Below, in pieces: positions 2,888-38,123 of a stretch of 48,784 bases of DNA. Each line of letters begins with the position of its first letter. The stretch's first letter is position 1. This DNA is from an uncultured SAR86 cluster bacterium (GTDB taxonomy: Bacteria > Pseudomonadota > Gammaproteobacteria > Magnimaribacterales > AG-339-G14). The DNA lies in assembly GCA_902528485.1 (NCBI GenBank), contig CABZTA010000004.1, positions 1 to 48,784 on the forward strand, written 5' to 3'. The position numbers and the translations under genes were made by a program. Below the pieces are notes generated by a model, which was not told the DNA's origin, did no database searches, and saw only the letters and a list, made by a program, of their open reading frames with translations.

Positions 2888-3715
2888 TTATAACTCTAAA
2901 TCAACAAGATGATCTAGAAGAATACTTGGTCTAAGAGATCTTTGACCATAATTCTCTTGCAGGCTATCGCAAGCAACCGCGTGGTGAAAAACGCCCAAAA
3001 TAGATGCTTCCTTAGATGACAGTCCCTGTGCTAAATAGCCTGAAATCATGCCGCTTAAGACATCTCCCATACCACCAACAGCCATTCCTGGATTGCCAGC
3101 CGGGCAAACTGAAAAAGAGCCTCCATCATAAACAATTGTTTCTTTGCCTTTCAATACAACAGTGCCTGGATATAGATCAAATAATTTTTTTGCCATAATC
3201 TGTCTATTTTTTTGACTGCTAATTTTATTAGCTTTTAATAGCCTGGCTGCCTCCCCTTCATGAGGAGTGATGATTAAGTTCTTTCTGGGAATCTTGAAGT
3301 CTAGGATCTTAGGTAATAGGTTCAATCCATCTGCATCAATCAAAATTGGCAAATTCCTTTTTTTGGCAGCATGCAAAGATTTATAAAGAACTTGTTCGGA
3401 CCAAGCATTGGTTCCAAGCCCTGGTCCTATACAAAGCACGCTAGGTTTTAGTAAATGATCATCCAAATCTTGACCTGAGTTTACTGGTTTTGCCATTACC
3501 TCTGGACAATAGCTTAAGGCTGCAGTCACGTTCTCTGATCTAGTGGCCAGACTAACTAATCCAGCTCCACAGGATATAGCTGCCGTGGATGCAAGAATTC
3601 CTGCTCCACCAAATCCTTTGTTTCCTGCGACAACTAAGACATGCCCAAAAGAATGTTTATTAGCATTCGGAATTCTTTTTAGCTTTTTTAGTATTGACCT
3701 TACTTTATTTTCCAT
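2888..3715 (-). CDS. nnrD: ADP-dependent NAD(P)H-hydrate dehydratase (YjeF C-terminal domain only)
   Basis: NKHSFGHVLVVAG, GAGLV, IGPGLG, DADGL, TPHEGEA, VLKG and GMGDVLSG; only 275 aa, so no epimerase domain. Confidence 0.92.
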   Translation of the reverse strand: MENKVRSILKKLKRIPNANKHSFGHVLVVAGNKGFGGAGILASTAAISCGAGLVSLATRSENVTAALSYCPEVMAKPVNSGQDLDDHLLKPSVLCIGPGLGTNAWSEQVLYKSLHAAKKRNLPILIDADGLNLLPKILDFKIPRKNLIITPHEGEAARLLKANKISSQKNRQIMAKKLFDLYPGTVVLKGKETIVYDGGSFSVCPAGNPGMAVGGMGDVLSGMISGYLAQGLSSKEASILGVFHHAVACDSLQENYGQRSLRPSILLDHLVDLEL

Positions 3716-3779
3716 TTTTTCAATTCGATGTTTATAAATATAGTGTTATTCTATTTCTTTTCAAAAATAATTTTAGTCA

Positions 3780-4640
3780 ATGTCCGATAAAGATTCGAAT
3801 AAAGAGCATCAATATAAAATAAATCACAGCATTGCTGATCCAAATCAAGAGGCTGCAATCCCAGTGCCTGCTGCTACAGTTCTGTTGGTTAGAGAAGGGA
3901 AAACCACTCCAGAGGTTTTTATGATCCAAAGAGCAGCCAAAACAAATTTTGGCGGCGCTTGGGTTTTTCCAGGCGGTAAGTTAGATCAAGAAGACTACCA
4001 AGAGTCGCTGTACGATAAATGTGGAGGACTAAACGATCAAAAAGCTTCTGAAATCTTGGGTATCGAATCCTCAGGCTTAGGTTATTGGGTAGCTTGCATC
4101 AGAGAATGCTTCGAAGAATGCGGAGTTCTTTTAGCCTATACCGAAGACAAGAAACTATTCAATCCAGATGTCGAGCAACAAAAAATTCTTGATTCTTATC
4201 GTGATAAGTTAAATAACGGAGAGCATGTTTTAAATGAACTTTGCGAAGAATTTAATCTGACTCTTGCCACGGATCATCTAGGATTTTTGTCTCATTGGAT
4301 TACCCCAAAAATGGAAAAACGTAGGTACGACACTAGATTTTTTGTCGCGCTTTCACCGGAACATCAAAAAGCAGAGCACGATGGTGGCGAGGGAGTTAAG
4401 AGCACTTGGATTACTCCAGAGGAAGCACTAACAAAAGGTGCTGAAGGAACTTTTCCGATTATCATGCCAACCATAAAAAATCTTGAAGCTATTTCAGGAT
4501 TTTCAACAACTGAGGATCTTCTGGACGATAAATCTAAAAATAATCACCAAAAGTCTCCCTCCATACTTCCAAAATTTTTCATGGAAGATGGAAAGCTAGT
4601 AGGACTTTTGCCAGGGGATCAAGGTTATGAAGATCACTGA
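3780..4640 (+). CDS. NUDIX hydrolase (NUDT19-like, split Nudix box)
   Basis: PAATVLLVR, VFPGG...(insert)...IRECFEECG, HWITP, RRYDTRFF and PT motifs typical of this subfamily. Confidence 0.88.
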   Translation: MSDKDSNKEHQYKINHSIADPNQEAAIPVPAATVLLVREGKTTPEVFMIQRAAKTNFGGAWVFPGGKLDQEDYQESLYDKCGGLNDQKASEILGIESSGLGYWVACIRECFEECGVLLAYTEDKKLFNPDVEQQKILDSYRDKLNNGEHVLNELCEEFNLTLATDHLGFLSHWITPKMEKRRYDTRFFVALSPEHQKAEHDGGEGVKSTWITPEEALTKGAEGTFPIIMPTIKNLEAISGFSTTEDLLDDKSKNNHQKSPSILPKFFMEDGKLVGLLPGDQGYEDH

Positions 4641-5439
4641 GCTATCACCTTTAGTAAAAAGATTAACTGCAGGCAACGCAAGTGTCTTTACAGGACCTGG
4701 AACAAATACTTATATAGTCGGTAAAGAAAATTTCACAGTCATCGATCCCGGACCAGCCATTGAAGAACATATCAAAGATATTGTAAAAGTTTGTGGAGAG
4801 GATATTTCACAGATTCTTGTGACACACACGCATCCAGATCACTCACCTGGGGCAAAATTACTTCACCAAAGGACTGCGGCTCCAGTGATGGGTATGTATG
4901 CCAAGTATCCAAAGCATCAAGATAGAACTTTTAAACCAAACAAAGAACTATCAGAAGGAGATGAGATCAAAGAAGTCGATCATACTTTGATTGCTATTCA
5001 TACTCCTGGACATGCATCTAATCATATTTGTTTTTTCTTAGAAGAAGAGAAAATGTTATTTACTGGAGATCACATCATGGAGGGATCTACGGTTGTAATT
5101 TCTCCTCCCGATGGAAACATGAGGGAATACATTGATTCTTTAGAAAAGCTGAAAGCACTTGGTATCAAAACCATTGCACCTGGACATGGTGAAACCATGC
5201 GAGATGCTAATGCTGTTGTTGACTGGATAGTAAGCCATAGGATGTTTAGAGAGAAAAAAGTAGTTGATGCAATAACTGAGTTAAATCGATGCACGATAGA
5301 TGAACTTTTGCCAAAAGTTTATGATGATGTTGGAAGTCACTTGCATGGCATCGCAAAATCTTCTCTAGAGGCTCACTTAATAAAGTTGATAGAAGAAAAA
5401 AAAGTAACTAAAGATAAAGATATCTATATCTGGGGCTAA
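4627..5439 (+). CDS. Metallo-beta-lactamase-fold hydrolase (LACTB2-like, C-terminal winged helix)
   Basis: TGPGTNTY, IDPGP, THTHPDH, TPGH, GDH, PGHG and AHLxKL; overlaps the NUDIX stop by 14 bp. Confidence 0.9.
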   Translation: MKITELSPLVKRLTAGNASVFTGPGTNTYIVGKENFTVIDPGPAIEEHIKDIVKVCGEDISQILVTHTHPDHSPGAKLLHQRTAAPVMGMYAKYPKHQDRTFKPNKELSEGDEIKEVDHTLIAIHTPGHASNHICFFLEEEKMLFTGDHIMEGSTVVISPPDGNMREYIDSLEKLKALGIKTIAPGHGETMRDANAVVDWIVSHRMFREKKVVDAITELNRCTIDELLPKVYDDVGSHLHGIAKSSLEAHLIKLIEEKKVTKDKDIYIWG

Positions 5440-5441
5440 CT

Positions 5442-6083
5442 TTAATCTGGAAGTCTTACTCCGCAGCCCCCAATACCACAATAACCGTTTGGGTTTTTCG
5501 CAAGGTATTGTTGATGATAATCCTCAGCATAAAAGTAATCTTCTAATGGAAGAATTTCAGTCGTGATTTCAGGGTATCCTTCTTTTTTTAATGCTTCGCT
5601 GTAATTCACTTCACTCTTTTTGATTTGATCCAATAAAGTTTCATCAGAGTAATAAATTGCAGATCGATATTGTGTTCCCATATCATTGCCTTGTCTCATC
5701 CCTTGAGTAGGGTCATGACCCTCCCAAAAAATCTTAAGTATTTCTTGTAAGGAGATAATTTTGGGATCAAACACCACATGCACAACCTCAGTATGTCCGG
5801 TTAGGCCACTACAAACTTCCTCATAAAGAGGGTTAGGCGTAAAGCCTCCTGCATAACCAACCGAAGTAACATAAACTCCTTCTATATTCCAAAAAAGTCT
5901 CTCAGCTCCCCAGAAGCAGCCCATCCCTAGAAATATTTCAGACATACCTTCAGGAAAGGGCCCTATCATTGATGAGTTATTTACAAAGTGACTTTCATTA
6001 AACTGGATTTCATCAGTTCTTCCAGGGAGAGAGTCTTGCTCATTCACCATCAGGATTTTTTTGGATCTATCTATAAAAAACAT
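5442..6083 (-). CDS. msrA: Peptide-methionine (S)-S-oxide reductase
   Basis: GCFWG active site, YEEVC, HDPTQGMRQGND, AEDYHQQYL. Confidence 0.97.
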   Translation of the reverse strand: MFFIDRSKKILMVNEQDSLPGRTDEIQFNESHFVNNSSMIGPFPEGMSEIFLGMGCFWGAERLFWNIEGVYVTSVGYAGGFTPNPLYEEVCSGLTGHTEVVHVVFDPKIISLQEILKIFWEGHDPTQGMRQGNDMGTQYRSAIYYSDETLLDQIKKSEVNYSEALKKEGYPEITTEILPLEDYFYAEDYHQQYLAKNPNGYCGIGGCGVRLPD

Positions 6084-6085
6084 AT

Positions 6086-8026
6086 TTATTTATTTAATCG
6101 ATTGTTGATCAAATGGTCAACTACACTTGGATCAGCAAGGGTTGTCGTATCTCCAAGATCATGGATCTCATTTGCAGCAATTTTTCTCAAAATTCTTCGC
6201 ATAATTTTTCCTGACCTCGTTTTAGGCAAGTCAGGAGAAAATTGAATAATGTCTGGTTTAGCGATGGCACCAATCTCTTTAGCTACCAAATCCACTAATT
6301 CTTTCTTTAGAGAGTCTTCACCCGAAGAACCTATCATTAGGGTAACGTAACAGTAAATTCCTTGCCCTTTTATTTCATGTTCGTAACCAACAACAGCAGC
6401 TTCTGCGACTTGTTCATGCAAGACTAATGCACTTTCTATTTCAGCGGTGCCAAGCCTATGTCCTGAGACATTTAAAACATCATCAACCCTTCCTGTTATC
6501 CAAAAATATCCATCTTCATCTCTTTTAGCTCCATCCCCAGTAAAATAATATCCAGGGTAAGTTTTAAAATATGTATCAATGCATCTTTGATGATCTCCAT
6601 ACACTGATCTGATTTGAGAGGGCCATGGATCTTTGATGGCTAAATTACCTGAACCTGCTCCAGATATTTCTTTGCCATTTTCATCTAGAAGCACAGGATT
6701 TACTCCAAGAAATGGCTTAGAAGCACTGCCAGGTTTCTGAGATGTCAAAGCTGCTAGGCCAGTTATCATCATTGCTCCAGTTTCTGTTTGCCACCAGGTG
6801 TCGACAATTGGACATTGACTATTACCCACCACATTAAAATACCATTCCCAAGCTTCTGGATTTATTGGTTCTCCAACGGTTCCTAGTACTTCTAAAGATC
6901 CCCTGTCGGTTTTTTTTACAGGCTCATCACCTTGAGCCATTAATGCTCTTATCGCTGTTGGAGCTGTATAAAAAATATTTACCTTATATTTATCCACAAT
7001 ATCCCAAAATCTTGAATAATCTGGATAAGTTGGGACTCCCTCGAAAATAACTGAGGTAGCACAGTTCATCAGAGGACCATAAACAATATAAGTATGACCG
7101 GTTATCCAACCTACGTCCGCTGTGCACCAATAAACCTTGCCTTTTTTATAATTGAATACAAGTTCGTGAGTTATTCCAGAAGAGAGAAGGTATCCAGCAG
7201 TTGTATGCAAGACTCCTTTTGGTTTTCCAGTTGAACCAGACGTGTAAAGAATGAAAAGTGGATCTTCGGAATCCATTGGCTCACATTCACAGTGAGGTTC
7301 AAAATTTGAAATTACGTCAGAGTAGGCAACATCAATCTCAGGATTTATATTAATTGCTGTATCTGTATTTTTAACAACTATAACAGTGTGAACATTAGGA
7401 CATTGCTCTACTGCGGAGTCCACATTGTTTTTTAGAGGAACTTTTTTACCTCCTCTTAATCCTTCATTTGCTGTAATTATCGTTTGGCAATCAGAATCAA
7501 GAATTCTGTCTTTCAATGATTCGACAGAAAATCCTCCAAAAACTACTGAATGTACCGCACCAATTCTTGCGCAGGCCAGCATTGAATAAATAGCCTCCAA
7601 AATCATGGGCATGTAAATACACACCCTATCTCCTTTTTTTATTCCTCTTGATTTAAGTAAATTAGATAATCGACATACCTGTTCATATAATTCTTTATAA
7701 GTAATTCTTTTAGATGTCCTGCCATCGTCACTTTCCCAAATGAAAGCGATGTCTTTGCCATTATTTTCAAGATGTCTATCGACGCAATTAAAGCAAGCAT
7801 TCAATTTTCCATTAGAAAACCACTCAAACTCAGCTTCTTCCATATTTGTGGAAAGTACATCATCAAAAGGCTTTATCCAATTCAATCTAGATAAAGCTTC
7901 CTCGCCCCAAAATTTATTTGGATTATCTAAAGAGAGTTTATAAAGTTCACTGTATTTCTCTTCAGACATCAGAGGAACAAGATTAGATATTTTTGGAACT
8001 GGGTAGATCTTATCTGACATTTTCAA
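6086..8026 (-). CDS. acs: Acetyl-CoA synthetase
   Basis: [47 protein letters not shown]. Confidence 0.97.
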
Positions 8027-16944: not shown

Positions 16945-18476
<1,532 letters not shown>

Positions 18477-18776
18477 AATATACACACGACTTAATATTGT
18501 GAGTGTCCGTTCGAATTACTTGAATCTTCTATAGATCGCTAAATTGACACTATTTAGATCTCAAGAGTTCTTTAAAAGTATTGTAATTCCAAAATATGAA
18601 TGAATTTATTCATTCATGATCAACAATTTTTTGTTATCAATTGTTGATTGTTTTATCAAATTTTTTTGATAATTCACCAAGTAATATTCTGAGATTTATC
18701 TCAGAATGCTAATGGCAAATTCTGGCGCTTAGTAATCAGAAAACTTTCATACTTTTTTAAGTAATTAAAAATATAT
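18477..18776 (+). other. 16S-23S internal transcribed spacer without tRNA genes; boxA, processing-stem arms and AT-rich hairpins
   Basis: About 300 bp with no tRNA cloverleaf. boxA-like AGTTCTTTAAAA at 18566-18577. GTATTGTAATTCCAAAAT (18578-18595) pairs with ATTTTGGAATTCAATAC (21725-21741). Confidence 0.85.
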
Positions 18777-21683
<2,907 letters not shown>

Positions 21684-21753
21684 ATATTTTTAGTTATTTA
21701 GAAATTTTTCTAAACTAAGTCAGAATTTTGGAATTCAATACAAAAACGAATTT

Positions 21754-21871
21754 TGCTCGATGACAATAGCAAGTGTGTCCCACCTGAATCCATTCCGAAC
21801 TCAGAAGTGAAACCACTTAGCGCCGATGGTAGTGTAGCTTCTGTTACGCGAGAGTAGGACATCGTCGAGCT
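21754..21871 (+). rRNA. rrf: 5S ribosomal RNA
   Basis: CCACCTGAATCCATTCCGAACTCAGAAGTGAAA, CGCCGATGGTAGTGT, GAGAGTAGG; terminal stem GCTCGATGA/TCGTCGAGC. Confidence 0.97.
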
Positions 21872-35200: not shown

Positions 35201-36832
35201 TTCCCTGATTGAATCAATTGGAGGATTAGTAATTTGGGCAAAGAGTTGTTTGAAGTAGTCGTAAATCATTCTAGGCTTGTCAGATAAACAGGCTAAGGCA
35301 GCATCATTTCCCATTGAACCGAGAGGATCCCTCAGCTCTGTTACAAGAGGCAGAAGCATGAATTCAAGGGTTTCCGTTGTATAACCAAAGGACTGCATTC
35401 GTGAGATCAGATCTTCCTTAGAAGATTTGACTTTATATTTTTTAAGATCTTGCAGATCTACAATTTGGTTATTTATCCAATTACGGTAAGGATGTTTATT
35501 TGAAATATTTTTTTTGATTTCCTCATCAGGAATCATTCTTCCCTTCTCAAAGTCAATTAGAAACATTTTTCCTGGTTGCAGCCTACCTTTTGAAAGAACC
35601 TTAGATTGATCAACTGGGAGGACTCCTACCTCTGATGCCATGATGACTTTGTCATCATCTGTAACATAGAATCTGCTTGGTCTGAGACCATTTCTATCTA
35701 AGACTGCTCCAACATAATTACCGTCAGTAAACACAATCGAAGCAGGTCCATCCCAAGGCTCCATGAATGAAGACGAGTATTCATAAAAAGCCTTTTTTGC
35801 TGAACTCATTTCATTATCGTTTTGCCATGCTTCAGGAATCATCATCATTGCTGCTTCTGTAAGTTCTCTTCCAGACATAATTAAAAGCTCCAGAACATTA
35901 TCGAAAGATCCCGAATCTGAGCAGTCTGGTTCAGCAATAGGAAACAACTTTGTAATTTTTGAACCAAAGTATTCACTTTTTGCTAGACCTTGTCTGGAAT
36001 ACATTTGATTCATATTTCCCTTAAGTGTATTTATTTCACCGTTATGGCACATATACCTGTTTGGCTGAGCTCTGTCCCAAGAAGGAAATGTATTGGTACT
36101 GAATCTTGAATGAACCATTGCAAGGTGAGTTTCAAACTTTTTATGTTCTAAATCTGGATAAAAAGGGAAAAGTTGTGCAGGAGTCAACATTCCTTTATAA
36201 GCAATTAGTCTCGAAGACAAAGTACATGCATAAAACATAAAGGATTGTTTTAAATTTTCCTCGTATCTCAAGCGCTTAGTAAAAATTTTTCTGATCAAGT
36301 AAAGTTTTCTCTCAAATGCGTCTTGATCTAGTTTCGATGCTCTTTGGATAAAAATTTGTTGAATTTCAGGTTGGCAGTCTAATGCAGCTGGACCAACGTT
36401 TGCCTTTTTAGGATTAACCGGTACTTTTCTCCATCCTAAAAATTTTTGACCCTCTGATTTTATTATTTCTTCGACTACTTTTTTGCAATATGATCTTTCC
36501 TTTCTGTCTTGAGGAAGGAAAATATTCCCAGTAGCGTAACTCCCAAAAGCAGGAAGATTTATTTTGATTTTTTTTGCTTGTTCCTGGAAAAAAGAATCTG
36601 GTAGAGCCATAAGAATCCCAGCTCCATCACCAGTGTTTTCCTCAAACCCACATCCACCTCTATGGTCCATCCTAGAGTTGATTAAATAGGCATCATCCAT
36701 AATCTCTCTAGAGGGGATGCCTTTAATATTAGCAACTAAGCCGACGCCACAAGAGTCTTTCTCACTATTTGGGTCGTAAAGTCCAATTTTTTTAGGACGT
36801 TCTAGTAATTTATTTTCTTTATCTTCTACCAT
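32273..36832 (-). CDS. gltB: Glutamate synthase large subunit
   Basis: DSCGVG Ntn cysteine, HSRFSTNT, EPWDGPA, KQVASGRFGV, CIMMRKCHLNTC, GDHGCEYMTGG. Confidence 0.98.
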   Translation of the reverse strand: MVEDKENKLLERPKKIGLYDPNSEKDSCGVGLVANIKGIPSREIMDDAYLINSRMDHRGGCGFEENTGDGAGILMALPDSFFQEQAKKIKINLPAFGSYATGNIFLPQDRKERSYCKKVVEEIIKSEGQKFLGWRKVPVNPKKANVGPAALDCQPEIQQIFIQRASKLDQDAFERKLYLIRKIFTKRLRYEENLKQSFMFYACTLSSRLIAYKGMLTPAQLFPFYPDLEHKKFETHLAMVHSRFSTNTFPSWDRAQPNRYMCHNGEINTLKGNMNQMYSRQGLAKSEYFGSKITKLFPIAEPDCSDSGSFDNVLELLIMSGRELTEAAMMMIPEAWQNDNEMSSAKKAFYEYSSSFMEPWDGPASIVFTDGNYVGAVLDRNGLRPSRFYVTDDDKVIMASEVGVLPVDQSKVLSKGRLQPGKMFLIDFEKGRMIPDEEIKKNISNKHPYRNWINNQIVDLQDLKKYKVKSSKEDLISRMQSFGYTTETLEFMLLPLVTELRDPLGSMGNDAALACLSDKPRMIYDYFKQLFAQITNPPIDSIREEVIMSLECLIGPESNLLESQEKNAHRLRLKHPILSNQELESIKKLSAFGWKTKIIDITYERGSGSKGLRKALKRICRDSEDAIKQGYSFVLLSDRELSKDRIAISSLLACSSIHHYLVKKEKRTQLGLIVESGEAREVHHHCLLIGYGADAINPYLAFDVLEKSLDDGILQDENLKSSSDLVNAYKKGVAKGMLKVMAKMGISTLQSYKGAQIFEAVGLAEEIIKLCFPGTTSRVQGVNFDVLADEVERRHSIGYPEYDQNKVSVLPNPGDFHWRNGGDSHMWDPKSISSLQLASQANDETKYWEFSNHANEQTTRNSTLRGLMKFKYPKKGIPLDQVESEKEIVKRFATGAMSLGSISTEAHESLALAMNELGGKSNTGEGGEDPVRFKPLKDGRSKRSAIKQVASGRFGVTMWYLTNSDELQIKIAQGAKPGEGGELPGKKVDQYIARIRHSTPGVGLISPPPHHDIYSIEDIAQLIHDLKNANRKARISVKLVSEIGVGTIAAGVVKAKTDHLVIAGHDGGTGASPLTSIKHAGLPWELGIAETHQTLVMNNLRSRVVLQTDGQLKTGRDVAIAAILGAEEFGFSTAPLVTLGCIMMRKCHLNTCPVGIATQDKDLREKFKGKPENVVNYLFMVAKELRMIMAKLGIKTLNEMIGRVDLLELDTAINHWKKDGIDLSNVLTPAEKVFKNTDVYKTQDQNHNLEESLDLKLLRKIKPSILNRKKIKIEQEIGNTDRVFGTILSNEISKVWENNGLPEDSIYLKLNGSAGQSLGAWSCKGMTIELEGDANDYVGKGLSGGKIIIYPDKESSFLAEENIILGNVALYGATGGEAYFRGIAAERFCVRNSGAKVVVEGIGDHGCEYMTGGVAVILGETGRNFGAGMSGGVAYVYDPKKLFKKKCNTSTFELENLEDEEDLKELKQLINNHKKYTDSAIATKILNGWNSALDSFVKVMPTDYKRVMIEMKEKKLKVS

Positions 36833-36863
36833 CGATAATATTCCATCCTTCCTATTAGAAAGA

Positions 36864-36922
36864 TGCGTTCCTTCGGTTTTAATTTTTTACCTACTTCCGT
36901 CCTTTAAATAAGGATGAACGAT
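36864..36922 (-). ncRNA. glnA-motif (class I glutamine) riboswitch aptamer in the gltB 5' UTR
   Basis: Minus-strand RNA AUCGUUC-A-UCCUU AUUUA AAGGA-C-GGAAGUA-GGU AAAAAAUUAAA ACC-GAAG-GAACGCA. It shows P1 CGUUC/GAACG, P2, an E-loop (GGAAGUA/GAA) and P3, as in the glnA RNA motif, about 30 nt upstream of a nitrogen-assimilation gene. Confidence 0.85.
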
Positions 36923-36973
36923 TGATCTTAAGCCCAAGATCGCAAGGAAGAATAATGATTTCTTATAAGTTTA

Positions 36974-37003
36974 TTTATACCAAAATATCATAAAAAAGAC
37001 CAA
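36974..37003 (-). promoter_or_regulatory. Candidate sigma70 promoter for the riboswitch-gltBD transcript
   Basis: Minus strand TTGGTC-18 bp-TATAAA with an extended -10 TG. The region is very AT-rich, so chance matches are possible. Confidence 0.35.
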
Positions 37004-37034
37004 TTTTTATTCTGTAATATAAAAATTATATTTT

Positions 37035-38123
37035 TTATATTTTTAAGCTATTAAGGATTTTCTCATCAGGAACGTTTTCAACAATTTCCACTTTTCCTAG
37101 GCCATTTAATATGATGAACCTTAAGTTGTTATTTTTGTTCTTTTTATCCAACTCCATTGCTTTTAAAATTTTTTGAGGTTCACAATTAGAAGGCAACTTT
37201 GTTGGGAGTTTAAATTTTTTTATGACACCCATAACTCTATTAAATTCCTTAACTGTCAATTTTTTAAGTAAAAAAGACAATTTTGCCGCACATAGCATAC
37301 CAATCCCTACAGCCTCTCCATGATTTAATCCTCTAAAAGATTGGACGCTCTCAATTGCATGTGCATAAGTATGCCCAAAGTTTAGGTGCGCTCTAACCGA
37401 TTTCTCTTCTTCATCTTGCTCCACAACTTTTGATTTAATTTTTGAAGATATCTTGATGAGGTCTGCCAACTCAATATAATCTGTTCTCTTTCCTAACTTT
37501 CCTCCAAACTTCTCTAATTTTGATAAAAGTCTTATGTCGTCAATAAGTGCATGTTTAATAATTTCTGAATATCCAGCAGCCATATGCCTTTTACTAAGTG
37601 ATTTTAAAAAATATGTATCAATCAACACAGCTTTTGGCTGCTTAAATGCACCAATCATATTTTTAAATTTTTTACTATTAACTCCTGTCTTACCTCCAAT
37701 AGAAGCATCCACCTGAGCTAGAAGAGTGGTAGGAATGTGCATAACCTCTACTCCTCGTAGATATACCGAGGCTACAAAGCCTGAGAGATCAGTTGTAATA
37801 CCGCCGCCAAAAGAAACAATCAACGAATCTCTAGAAAATTTCAAATCTATTAATTTTTCTAAAATTTTTTGAGAGGTCTCAATAGATTTATTTTTTTCAT
37901 TCGCAGTAAACTTTAATGATTCAAATTTACTCGGTTTTGATTTCCGTATGAAGCTCTTTACTTTTCTGATTGATAAATCAGGAAGCTTTGAGTCAAAAAT
38001 AAGAAAAATTTCTTTTGAATTAGATATCTTTTTTAAGGAAAAGCTATTAATAAAATTATCACCAAAATAAATGGAATAATTTGAACTAGGAGAACTTACC
38101 TTTAATTGTTTAATTGTTTTCAT
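37035..38123 (-). CDS. aroB: 3-dehydroquinate synthase
   Basis: GGGITTD, PTTLLAQVDASIGGKTGVN, KNMIGAF, EIIKH, LNFGHTYAHAIE, HGEAV, DKK. Confidence 0.96.
   Translation of the reverse strand: MKTIKQLKVSSPSSNYSIYFGDNFINSFSLKKISNSKEIFLIFDSKLPDLSIRKVKSFIRKSKPSKFESLKFTANEKNKSIETSQKILEKLIDLKFSRDSLIVSFGGGITTDLSGFVASVYLRGVEVMHIPTTLLAQVDASIGGKTGVNSKKFKNMIGAFKQPKAVLIDTYFLKSLSKRHMAAGYSEIIKHALIDDIRLLSKLEKFGGKLGKRTDYIELADLIKISSKIKSKVVEQDEEEKSVRAHLNFGHTYAHAIESVQSFRGLNHGEAVGIGMLCAAKLSFLLKKLTVKEFNRVMGVIKKFKLPTKLPSNCEPQKILKAMELDKKNKNNNLRFIILNGLGKVEIVENVPDEKILNSLKI

Follow-up and report, generated by a model that had tools for sequence, protein, structure and literature searches.

A probable glutamine-activated riboswitch of the glutamine-I family in the glutamate synthase (gltB-gltD) leader of a streamlined marine gammaproteobacterium

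The window analysed here (the whole stretch of DNA, 48,784 nucleotides) is one complete contig of a 0.89-Mb, 60%-complete assembly (G000) of a SAR86 cluster bacterium, with a G+C content of 34.5% outside the rRNA operon. The order to which it belongs comprises four families with genomes of approximately 0.7-1.6 Mb; this subdivision, the sizes and the G+C content agree with what PMC11582366 describes for the SAR86 order. The window carries gltB and gltD, which encode the large and small subunits of glutamate synthase (GOGAT), with gltD starting 1 nt past the gltB stop codon, and aroK and aroB lie upstream of the gltB leader on the same strand. From the aroB stop (37035) to the gltB start (36832) there is a gap of 202 nt which, when ORFs of at least 100 aa are considered and the 285 nt at the contig start are excluded from the ranking, is the longest outside the rRNA operon region, as the first-pass annotation of this DNA had noted. 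A full 16S-23S-5S operon (16945-21870) is found on the same contig, and it ties the contents of the leader to a host, a point that the same annotation had made. Its assignment of that host to the gammaproteobacteria also agrees with our data, since the same leader types occur in public records titled 'Gammaproteobacteria bacterium'. Contigs from four public RNA runs cover coding parts of gltB only, within 35800-36717.

The gap contains a complete glutamine-I (glnA RNA) aptamer. In a search of both strands of the 48.8-kb window with 4,227 Rfam families, Infernal aligned the model RF01739 to 36922..36862 of the minus strand; a score of 65.3 bits (gathering score 35) and an E-value of 2.5e-12 place the match well outside chance expectation. 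The alignment takes in the full model (1-53 of 53) without any pair being marked as non-canonical, and the match was recovered again in a scan of the whole genome. It is the one riboswitch among the Rfam matches in the window, the others being the 16S, 23S and 5S rRNAs; glutamine-II (RF01704, Downstream-peptide motif) has no match in the window at its gathering score. A glnA-motif riboswitch associated with glutamate synthase had been proposed from the letters alone, with a covariance-model search as the suggested check, and both the identity and the association hold: the 3' end of the aptamer is located 30 nt before the gltB ATG, on the same strand. The range proposed then, 36864-36922, is the same aptamer less two 3' bases, and all the P1, P2, P3 and junction elements named for the three-stem junction are present, on a strand (minus) that had not been given. 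The features of the locus are listed in Table 1. Aligned to RF01739, the aptamer of the window has a C at 36865 as well as the CGG within its junction; in the crystal structure, as described by Klahn 2018 (PMC6212724), the linchpin C that follows P1 enters a long-range G-C pair closing the ligand pocket.

Table 1. Features of the gltB-gltD locus and its leader (window coordinates)
Feature	Position	Strand	Basis or remark
gltD, glutamate synthase small subunit, 481 aa	30826..32271	-	TIGR01317, 687 bits (cut-off 447.7)
gltB, glutamate synthase large subunit, 1519 aa	32273..36832	-	NF008730, 1728.8 bits (cut-off 1047)
gltB start codon AUG	36830..36832	-	11 nt past the Shine-Dalgarno (SD) hairpin; N-terminus conserved in the genus
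Hairpin CAUCUUUCU (36865-36857) / loop AAUA / GGAAGGAUG (36852-36844), predicted to bury the SD region	36844..36865	-	Fold
C directly 3' of P1, at the position of the family's linchpin C; first base of the SD hairpin	36865	-	RF01739 alignment
Glutamine-I (glnA RNA, RF01739) aptamer, complete	36862..36922	-	61 nt; Infernal
P1 3' strand GAACG	36866..36870	-	RF01739 alignment
Junction GAAG	36871..36874	-	RF01739 alignment
P3 hairpin GGU (36891-36889) / 11-nt A/U loop / ACC (36877-36875)	36875..36891	-	RF01739 alignment
Junction CGGAAGUA, E-loop/ligand-pocket strand	36892..36899	-	Identical to family consensus
P2 hairpin UCCUU (36914-36910) / loop AUUUA / AAGGA (36904-36900)	36900..36914	-	RF01739 alignment
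P1 5' strand CGUUC	36916..36920	-	RF01739 alignment
Conserved 5' element: pyrimidine stretch AUUCUUCCUU (36953-36944) and hairpin GAUCUU..AAGAUC (36941-36924)	36924..36953	-	Conserved across the genus
Candidate extended -10 promoter TGGTATAAAT	36973..36982	-	Invariant in all genus leaders, flanks vary

RF01739 is widespread in the order, where 57 of 101 genomes match at E<=0.001 and 44 exceed the gathering score. Within the window's genus (g1), 10 of the 15 other genomes match, and the five that do not are 71-88% complete. All 11 fetched loci of the genus (G000 and ten others) precede gltB, 33-35 nt before the ATG, and the long P3 loop is common to the whole genus. P2 and P3 are backed by compensatory changes among relatives. 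In the 68 distinct aptamers obtained from 80 loci of the order, the third pair of P2 is CG in 37 and UA in 31, and the fourth is UA in 35, CG in 19 and UG in eight, with six non-pairs; the first pair of P3 is GC in 36, AU in 18 and GU in 13, and the third is CG in 33, UA in 27 and UG in seven. The 5' strand of P1 (CGUUC) was fixed in the search pattern, so that its identity in 68 of 68 aptamers carries no information.

In order to identify the genes under these aptamers, all listed loci of the order were read downstream except one at a contig edge; Pfam and NCBIfam models were applied to one or a few members per class, and the rest were assigned by eye from near-identical N-termini. The 11 gltB leaders are all in g1. 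GS type I follows three leaders in g7, GS type II-like genes follow 14 (12 in g7 and two in g12), and a Gcw_chp porin-like protein follows 13 in g7. The remaining classes are a circularly permuted ATP-grasp protein (three leaders, g6 and g9), a TonB-dependent receptor (two, g12), small ORFs that have 43-54 aa and match no Pfam family (12, in several genera), DUF4177 (one, g16) and DUF4278-like ORFs (15). One of the DUF4278-like leaders has canonical tandem aptamers (g14), and the other 14 are weaker-scoring (g2, g4, g9 and g10): the aptamer is long-armed in 12 distinct leaders and short-armed in one (G018), while the leader L040 of G028 lies outside the read-out. One weak match inside a GS coding region was discarded as a false positive. 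Beyond the order, a sample of one genome per family of the class Gammaproteobacteria, scanned with stricter filters, gave 0 of 149 genomes in other families, the matches being G000 and one other genome of the same order. An exact-core scan of species genomes returned, among the at least 80 matches listed, 53 cyanobacterial, 16 alphaproteobacterial (SAR11, SAR116 and others) and seven gammaproteobacterial ones. A table in PMC12379486 also records RF01739 in two SAR86 MAGs.

Downstream of the aptamer, the GGAAGGAUG side of the hairpin is the sole SD-like stretch before the gltB AUG (the 3' end of the window's 16S rRNA reads ..CACCUCCU..), and its spacing to the AUG is long, with 13 nt from the AAGGA core. 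The hairpin between aptamer tail and SD region has 9 bp and -10.0 kcal/mol and begins straight after P1. Because the platforms of the gltB type and of the small-ORF type did not line up in a MAFFT alignment, the formal count of pairs was replaced by per-sequence folds and by a helix scan with shuffles. All distinct CAUC-tail leaders (18 of 18) form the hairpin; eight of them precede gltB, and ten precede small ORFs or DUF4177 in other families. In the ten non-gltB leaders the inner stem differs yet stays complementary, and one gltB leader retains the SD helix through a U-A to U-G change. The helix scan required perfect 6-bp pairing between the six bases after P1 and the SD-containing stretch preceding a start codon, in 158 distinct leaders with at least 60 nt downstream each (53 from the order and 105 among the species-genome matches listed). 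A tail-SD helix with a start codon was found in 72 of the 158, whereas 200 shuffles averaged 0.65 and reached 3 at most. These 72 leaders fall into seven helix classes that covary on both strands: CGCCUC/GAGGCG (48), CAUCUU/GAGAUG (9), CAUCUU/AGGAUG (8), CGCUUC/GAAGCG (2), CGUUCC/GGAACG (2), CACCUC/GAGGUG (2) and CGUCUC/GAGGCG (1). The class of 48 consists of cyanobacterial DUF4278 (gifB-type) leaders. The tail-to-SD hairpin is thus the commonest expression platform of the glutamine-I family.

This architecture suggests how the leader may work. When glutamine is absent, the tail-SD hairpin would block ribosome binding at gltB; L-glutamine, once bound, would draw C36865 into the long-range G-C pair of the aptamer, and the withdrawal of this base would loosen the SD hairpin and allow translation of gltBD. 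The glutamine-ON reading is proposed because the window leader shares its build with gifB-type leaders, the Synechocystis gifB leader being glutamine-activated. According to Klahn 2018 (PMC6212724), expression from the gifB (IF17) leader of Synechocystis sp. PCC 6803 goes up after an ammonium upshift in a glutamine-dependent manner under a constitutive promoter, and glutamine was postulated to melt an RBS-blocking helix that starts at the linchpin C. The two leaders belong to the same RF01739 family and have the same platform design, in which nucleotides from the C 3' of P1 pair with the RBS, so that activation by glutamine is expected in both. In contrast to the gifB leader, the window leader precedes gltBD instead of a DUF4278 GS-inactivating factor, has a gammaproteobacterial host, belongs to the class CAUCUU/AGGAUG and not to the gifB-type CGCCUC/GAGGCG, and possesses the 11-nt A/U loop in P3 and the additional conserved 5' element. 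By this analogy, glutamine would switch gltBD translation on, and high glutamine would lead to more GOGAT, the sole enzyme turning glutamine into glutamate in a genus without detected GDH and GlnD. Taking the conserved aptamer and platform together, we consider it probable that the gltB-gltD leader of this streamlined marine gammaproteobacterium carries a functional glutamine-I riboswitch and that glutamine turns translation on.

The minimum-energy fold contains both P1 and the SD hairpin, and therefore the coupling between aptamer and hairpin depends on a single tertiary pair, which is derived from the literature. In addition, in most small-ORF leaders the hairpin has an energy of -4.8 to -6.0 kcal/mol, weaker than the approximately -10 of the window, so melting through one lost pair is less obvious here. 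The adjacency and coexistence of P1 and the hairpin would also suit the opposite logic, in which glutamine stabilises P1, stacked on the adjoining SD hairpin, gltBD is turned off, and GOGAT is made at low glutamine. Negative control was deemed reasonable for some assimilation genes linked to glnA RNAs (Weinberg 2010, PMC2864571; Klahn 2018, PMC6212724), and the GS genes of the order bear a different platform, with a spacer of about 80 nt, indicating that the logic of control varies within the family. Nevertheless, the platform class is the one common to the cyanobacterial DUF4278 (gifB-type) leaders, of which the Synechocystis one is activated by glutamine, and since glutamine is the substrate of GOGAT, repressing the sole glutamate-forming enzyme (GDH in 0 of 5 genus genomes) at high substrate would make little physiological sense. 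We therefore regard repression by glutamine as unlikely and retain activation as the working model.

Upstream of the aptamer, the pyrimidine stretch of the conserved 5' element pairs with the same SD region in folds of the full leader. In the window this long-range fold equals in energy the fold with the aptamer and the local hairpin (-30.3 kcal/mol each), and the pyrimidine-SD helix persists with P1 imposed and the tail held single-stranded (-27.0 versus -30.3 kcal/mol). As the stretch can hold the SD region, the SD might stay closed after the hairpin has been loosened, and the activation model is incomplete in this respect. Pairing of the 5' half of the aptamer with the SD region was also considered; the complementarity exists in the window, but the pairing is not favoured, as a P2 change in the leader L013 is compensated inside P2 with none in the SD, and the data do not need it. 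The presence of an extra conserved element would fit a real aptamer that acts mainly through transcript elongation or stability (Rho-dependent termination, RNase access) and not through ribosome binding. Rho or RNase effects coupled to translation often accompany switches that sequester the SD, which also speaks for a contribution of this kind. On the other hand, the promoter/terminator scan detected no terminator-like site of the intrinsic type in 36700-37200, and in related leaders (18 of 18) it is precisely the SD that the conserved helix occupies. A main action by this route is, in our view, improbable, somewhat more so than repression by glutamine. As for transcription initiation, the TGGTATAAAT box may be an extended -10 promoter, given its invariance in the genus. 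The consensus promoter scan did not flag it, reporting instead TTAATA-18-TATAAT (37054..37025), a promoter-like site that was rejected since shuffles give as many.

The genome contains a second glutamine-I aptamer. A default-filter genome scan yields one RF01739 copy, a count superseded by a laxer Rfam scan that finds a further match of 37.6 bits (gathering score 35) on another contig, C1 (L198, 1976..1837, minus strand), in line with the first-pass suggestion to look for additional copies. This copy lies past the glnK-amt terminator and a TGGTATAAT box, and is followed by a 53-aa ORF that contains three YRG repeats. The ORF scores 23.8 bits against DUF4278, for which the cut-off is 25.3, and six tested relatives score 17.9-25.1 bits. 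The two copies have the same RF01739 core and a promoter of the same TGnTATAAT type. They differ in that the second is long-armed, with about 90 extra, highly conserved nucleotides of structure within P3, and has the tail CGUU.., a platform element of about 60 nt and a mini-protein as target. An RNAalifold analysis of 13 long-armed leaders paired the 5' strand of P1 with the internal GAACG of the insertion and not with the distal one. Should glutamine turn both switches on, GOGAT would rise at high glutamine together with a putative GS inhibitor, and the gltBD switch and the second switch (DUF4278, IF17-like mini-protein) would exert negative feedback on the glutamine pool.

The same slot is occupied differently in three sister genera of the family. 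No glutamine aptamer is present in the gltB leaders of g2, g3 and g4, which contain a TTGCACT-N5-AGTGCAA palindrome that we take to resemble an NtrC box, and one to three tandem units, in each of which a short hairpin is followed by an A-rich linker and then by bases complementary to the loop of that hairpin. A single copy of this pattern per genome, located at gltB, was found in 4 of 4 genomes of g2, 7 of 9 of g3 and 6 of 6 of g4. The window's genus has none (0 of 6 genomes), and the reversed pattern, used as a control, gave one match in 101 genomes. The leader matches no Rfam family at E<=0.1. The bases behind the final unit are also able to pair around the start codon; sequence diversity is low, and the alignment is out of register for g2. 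This pseudoknot-like leader is a candidate for an undescribed cis-regulatory RNA in the same position. That sister genera run gltB without a glutamine aptamer, and that protein regulators exist in the genus, would be compatible with an aptamer that is a decaying or idle relic, with gltBD under proteins only (PII, NtrB and the short NtrC). This explanation is, however, very hard to reconcile with a core in which every position matches the consensus, and with aptamer and platform kept in 11 of 11 fetched genus loci despite variation of flanks and loop, including the U-A to U-G change that retains the SD helix; we give it hardly any weight.

The protein regulators of nitrogen were searched in five genomes of the genus (G000, 60% complete, and four others, 85-94%). 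PII is present in all five, beside amt in G000 (contig C1) and in three of the other four. Full-length NtrC exceeded the cut-off in 0 of 5. An operon of glnII, ntrB and a short ntrC-like regulator is present in the four other genomes, where it was read out in G002, and was not found in the incomplete G000 assembly; the short regulator has 256-258 aa and comprises only a receiver and a Fis-type HTH domain. GlnD, sigma-54 (RpoN) and GDH (Glu/Leu/Phe/Val dehydrogenase family) were each found in 0 of the 5 genomes, at 60-94% completeness. The first-pass annotation had proposed RNA-level nitrogen sensing in place of protein regulators, with ntrBC and glnB/glnK as genes to look for. This stands for GlnD, sigma-54 and full-length NtrC, and does not stand for PII or for the ntrB and short ntrC-like genes of the relatives. 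As PII, NtrB and the short NtrC are kept and GlnD, sigma-54 and GDH were not found, the riboswitch looks like a stand-in for the missing glutamine sensor GlnD beside a reduced protein system, and not like a replacement for all protein regulators.

Across the order, GlnD is over the cut-off in 45 of 101 genomes; it was found in 25 of 25 genomes of the family f2 and 22 of 25 of f3 (0 of 3 in its genus g12), f1 yields only scraps of 16-20 bits, and f4 has it in 0 of 25. RpoN has the same distribution, with only a C-terminal remnant of 80-90 aa in g2 and g4. Among the 101 genomes, g1, g7 and g12 are the only genera with switches ahead of GS or GOGAT genes, and in these genera GlnD exceeds the cut-off in 0 of 6, 0 of 25 and 0 of 3 genomes, and RpoN likewise in 0 of 6, 0 of 25 and 0 of 3. 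In the seven switch-bearing genera with GlnD and RpoN (g6, g9, g10, g11, g14, g15 and g16), the switches precede accessory genes only. Since riboswitches also occur in GlnD-bearing genera, the idea that they substitute for GlnD amounts to a correlation across three independent lineages at most, and with relatives that are not independent of one another the association of switches with GlnD and RpoN is a lead and no test. As a tentative proposal, which we hold with less confidence than the gltBD switch itself, glutamine-I RNAs may serve as the direct glutamine sensor of GS-GOGAT in those lineages of the order that lack GlnD and sigma-54, the two ON switches of this genome may constitute an RNA-only feedback, and the gltB leader may be a slot in which RNA sensors are exchanged.

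Control of GOGAT by nitrogen status is known from protein systems, such as TnrA and GltC acting on gltAB in Bacillus subtilis, and Nac and Lrp acting on gltBD in E. coli; in B. subtilis, GOGAT expression is lowered when glutamine is scarce. GOGAT is tied to nitrogen status in those systems as in the window, with the difference that their sensors are proteins acting on transcription, whereas here the sensor would be the mRNA leader. Among RNAs, glutamine-II (RF01704) has the same ligand and related junction sequences (Weinberg 2010, PMC2864571), and a different architecture. In marine metagenomes, the same study described glnA RNAs, tandem copies among them, upstream of genes for glutamate synthase and PII and of glnA and amt. 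The motif-gene association of the window is therefore the one that it described; the hosts were then unknown, whereas lineage, platform and context are defined here. Where Klahn 2018 (PMC6212724) states the occurrence of these switches, only cyanobacteria and marine metagenomes are named, and the glnA-linked cases appear there as having no known expression effect or taxonomic affiliation. The literature matches listed for RF01739, for the glutamine riboswitch with SAR86, and for gltB/GOGAT describe no gltB-linked switch, platform or regulon for the order; the word 'riboswitch' is absent from a SAR86 genome paper (PMC11582366), and the literature on DUF4278 concerns, by title, only cyanobacteria or cyanophages. 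The supplement of Klahn 2018 contains no mention of glutamate synthase, GltB or proteobacteria, while its Table S2 and the additional files of Weinberg 2010 may list gltB-linked cases. In summary, the riboswitch class and its link to glutamate synthase have been in print since 2010, and the window newly defines host, platform and genomic context.

Knowledge of the glutamine-I class itself is unchanged by the window's switch. A gltBD-linked switch is now placed on an rRNA-bearing contig of an abundant type of marine gammaproteobacterium with a small genome, and the natural leaders, with their varied genes and platforms, form a set for experiments. Together they would offer a testable picture of how streamlined ocean heterotrophs may sense nitrogen by RNA.

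Directly 5' of the aptamer, the gltB leader of the window carries a conserved element (Table). Its pyrimidine stretch and the aptamer tail are complementary to one and the same Shine-Dalgarno (SD) region; the window leader consequently has two folds of equal energy. The short frame opening inside the SD strand has six codons here and three in most relatives of the genus. Because the SD abuts it, the 6-codon frame is probably not translated.

Table. Coordinates of features in the window and in related loci
Feature	Location	Strand	Remarks
5' leader element: AUUCUUCCUU and 6-7-bp hairpin	window 36924-36953	minus	conserved, directly 5' of aptamer
6-codon frame from AUG within SD strand (GGAUGG)	window 36826-36846	minus	UAG overlaps gltB codon 2
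Second RF01739 copy	contig C1, locus L198 1976..1837	minus	37.6 bits vs Rfam gathering score 35
53-aa ORF, three YRG repeats	locus L198 1778..1617	minus	DUF4278 23.8 bits, just below cut-off 25.3
Operon: GlnII-like glutamine synthetase (GS, 326 aa), NtrB-like kinase, 256-aa NtrC-like regulator	locus L197 (G002:C1:269500-278500) 3472-6424	minus	same-genus relatives
RpoN C-terminal frames, examples	G016:C1:833391-833573; G025:C3:85547-85726		genera g2/g4

The same genome holds a second RF01739 copy, on contig C1, which was not picked up by the genome scan at default filters. Its P3 includes approximately 90 nt of extra conserved structure, and it lies between the glnK-amt terminator with a TGGTATAAT box and the 53-aa ORF with YRG repeats.

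Regarding nitrogen-control proteins, the kinase of the GlnII-NtrB-NtrC-like operon in same-genus relatives scores 227.6 bits with NF008293 (cut-off 240), and the 256-aa regulator has receiver and Fis-HTH domains without the sigma-54 activation domain. Sigma-54 was not found in the same-genus genomes carrying this operon. In the sister genera g2 and g4, the RpoN match is confined to an open frame of 80-90 aa corresponding to the C-terminal end (38-48 bits), which looks like the remnant of a lost sigma-54 gene.

The glutamine aptamer is absent from the gltB leaders compared in the sister genera g2, g3 and g4 (loci L207-L213, L217, L225 and L226). These leaders contain the palindrome TTGCACT-N5-AGTGCAA and one to three tandem units, each combining a hairpin with an A-rich linker and a segment whose sequence complements the loop of that hairpin, in a pseudoknot-like arrangement; the last unit overlaps a helix able to cover the start codon. 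The unit is present once per genome, at gltB only, in four of four g2, seven of nine g3 and all six g4 genomes, and in none of six from the window's genus. No Rfam family matches it at an E-value of 0.1 or below. The leader structure is a candidate for an undescribed cis-regulatory RNA.

Leaders from other families of the order (loci L002-L024 and L055-L080) have glutamine aptamers, single and tandem, upstream of GS-I, GS-II-like, Gcw_chp porin-like, TonB-receptor and ATP-grasp genes. Their platform is different, a spacer of around 80 nt with a conserved GUUAAAC..GUUUAAC hairpin, and upstream lies an ACCAT-N6-ATGGT palindrome adjoining TTGCACC. Downstream of 12 leaders there are basic ORFs of 43-54 aa belonging to no family, several with FPYYL/PFYP-like C-terminal tails. 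At three loci of family f4 (G067:C1, G058:C1 and G091:C1), the riboswitch faces a porin-like gene, with gltB divergent some 200-250 nt away; the switch and gltB are thus neighbours in this family too, on opposite strands.
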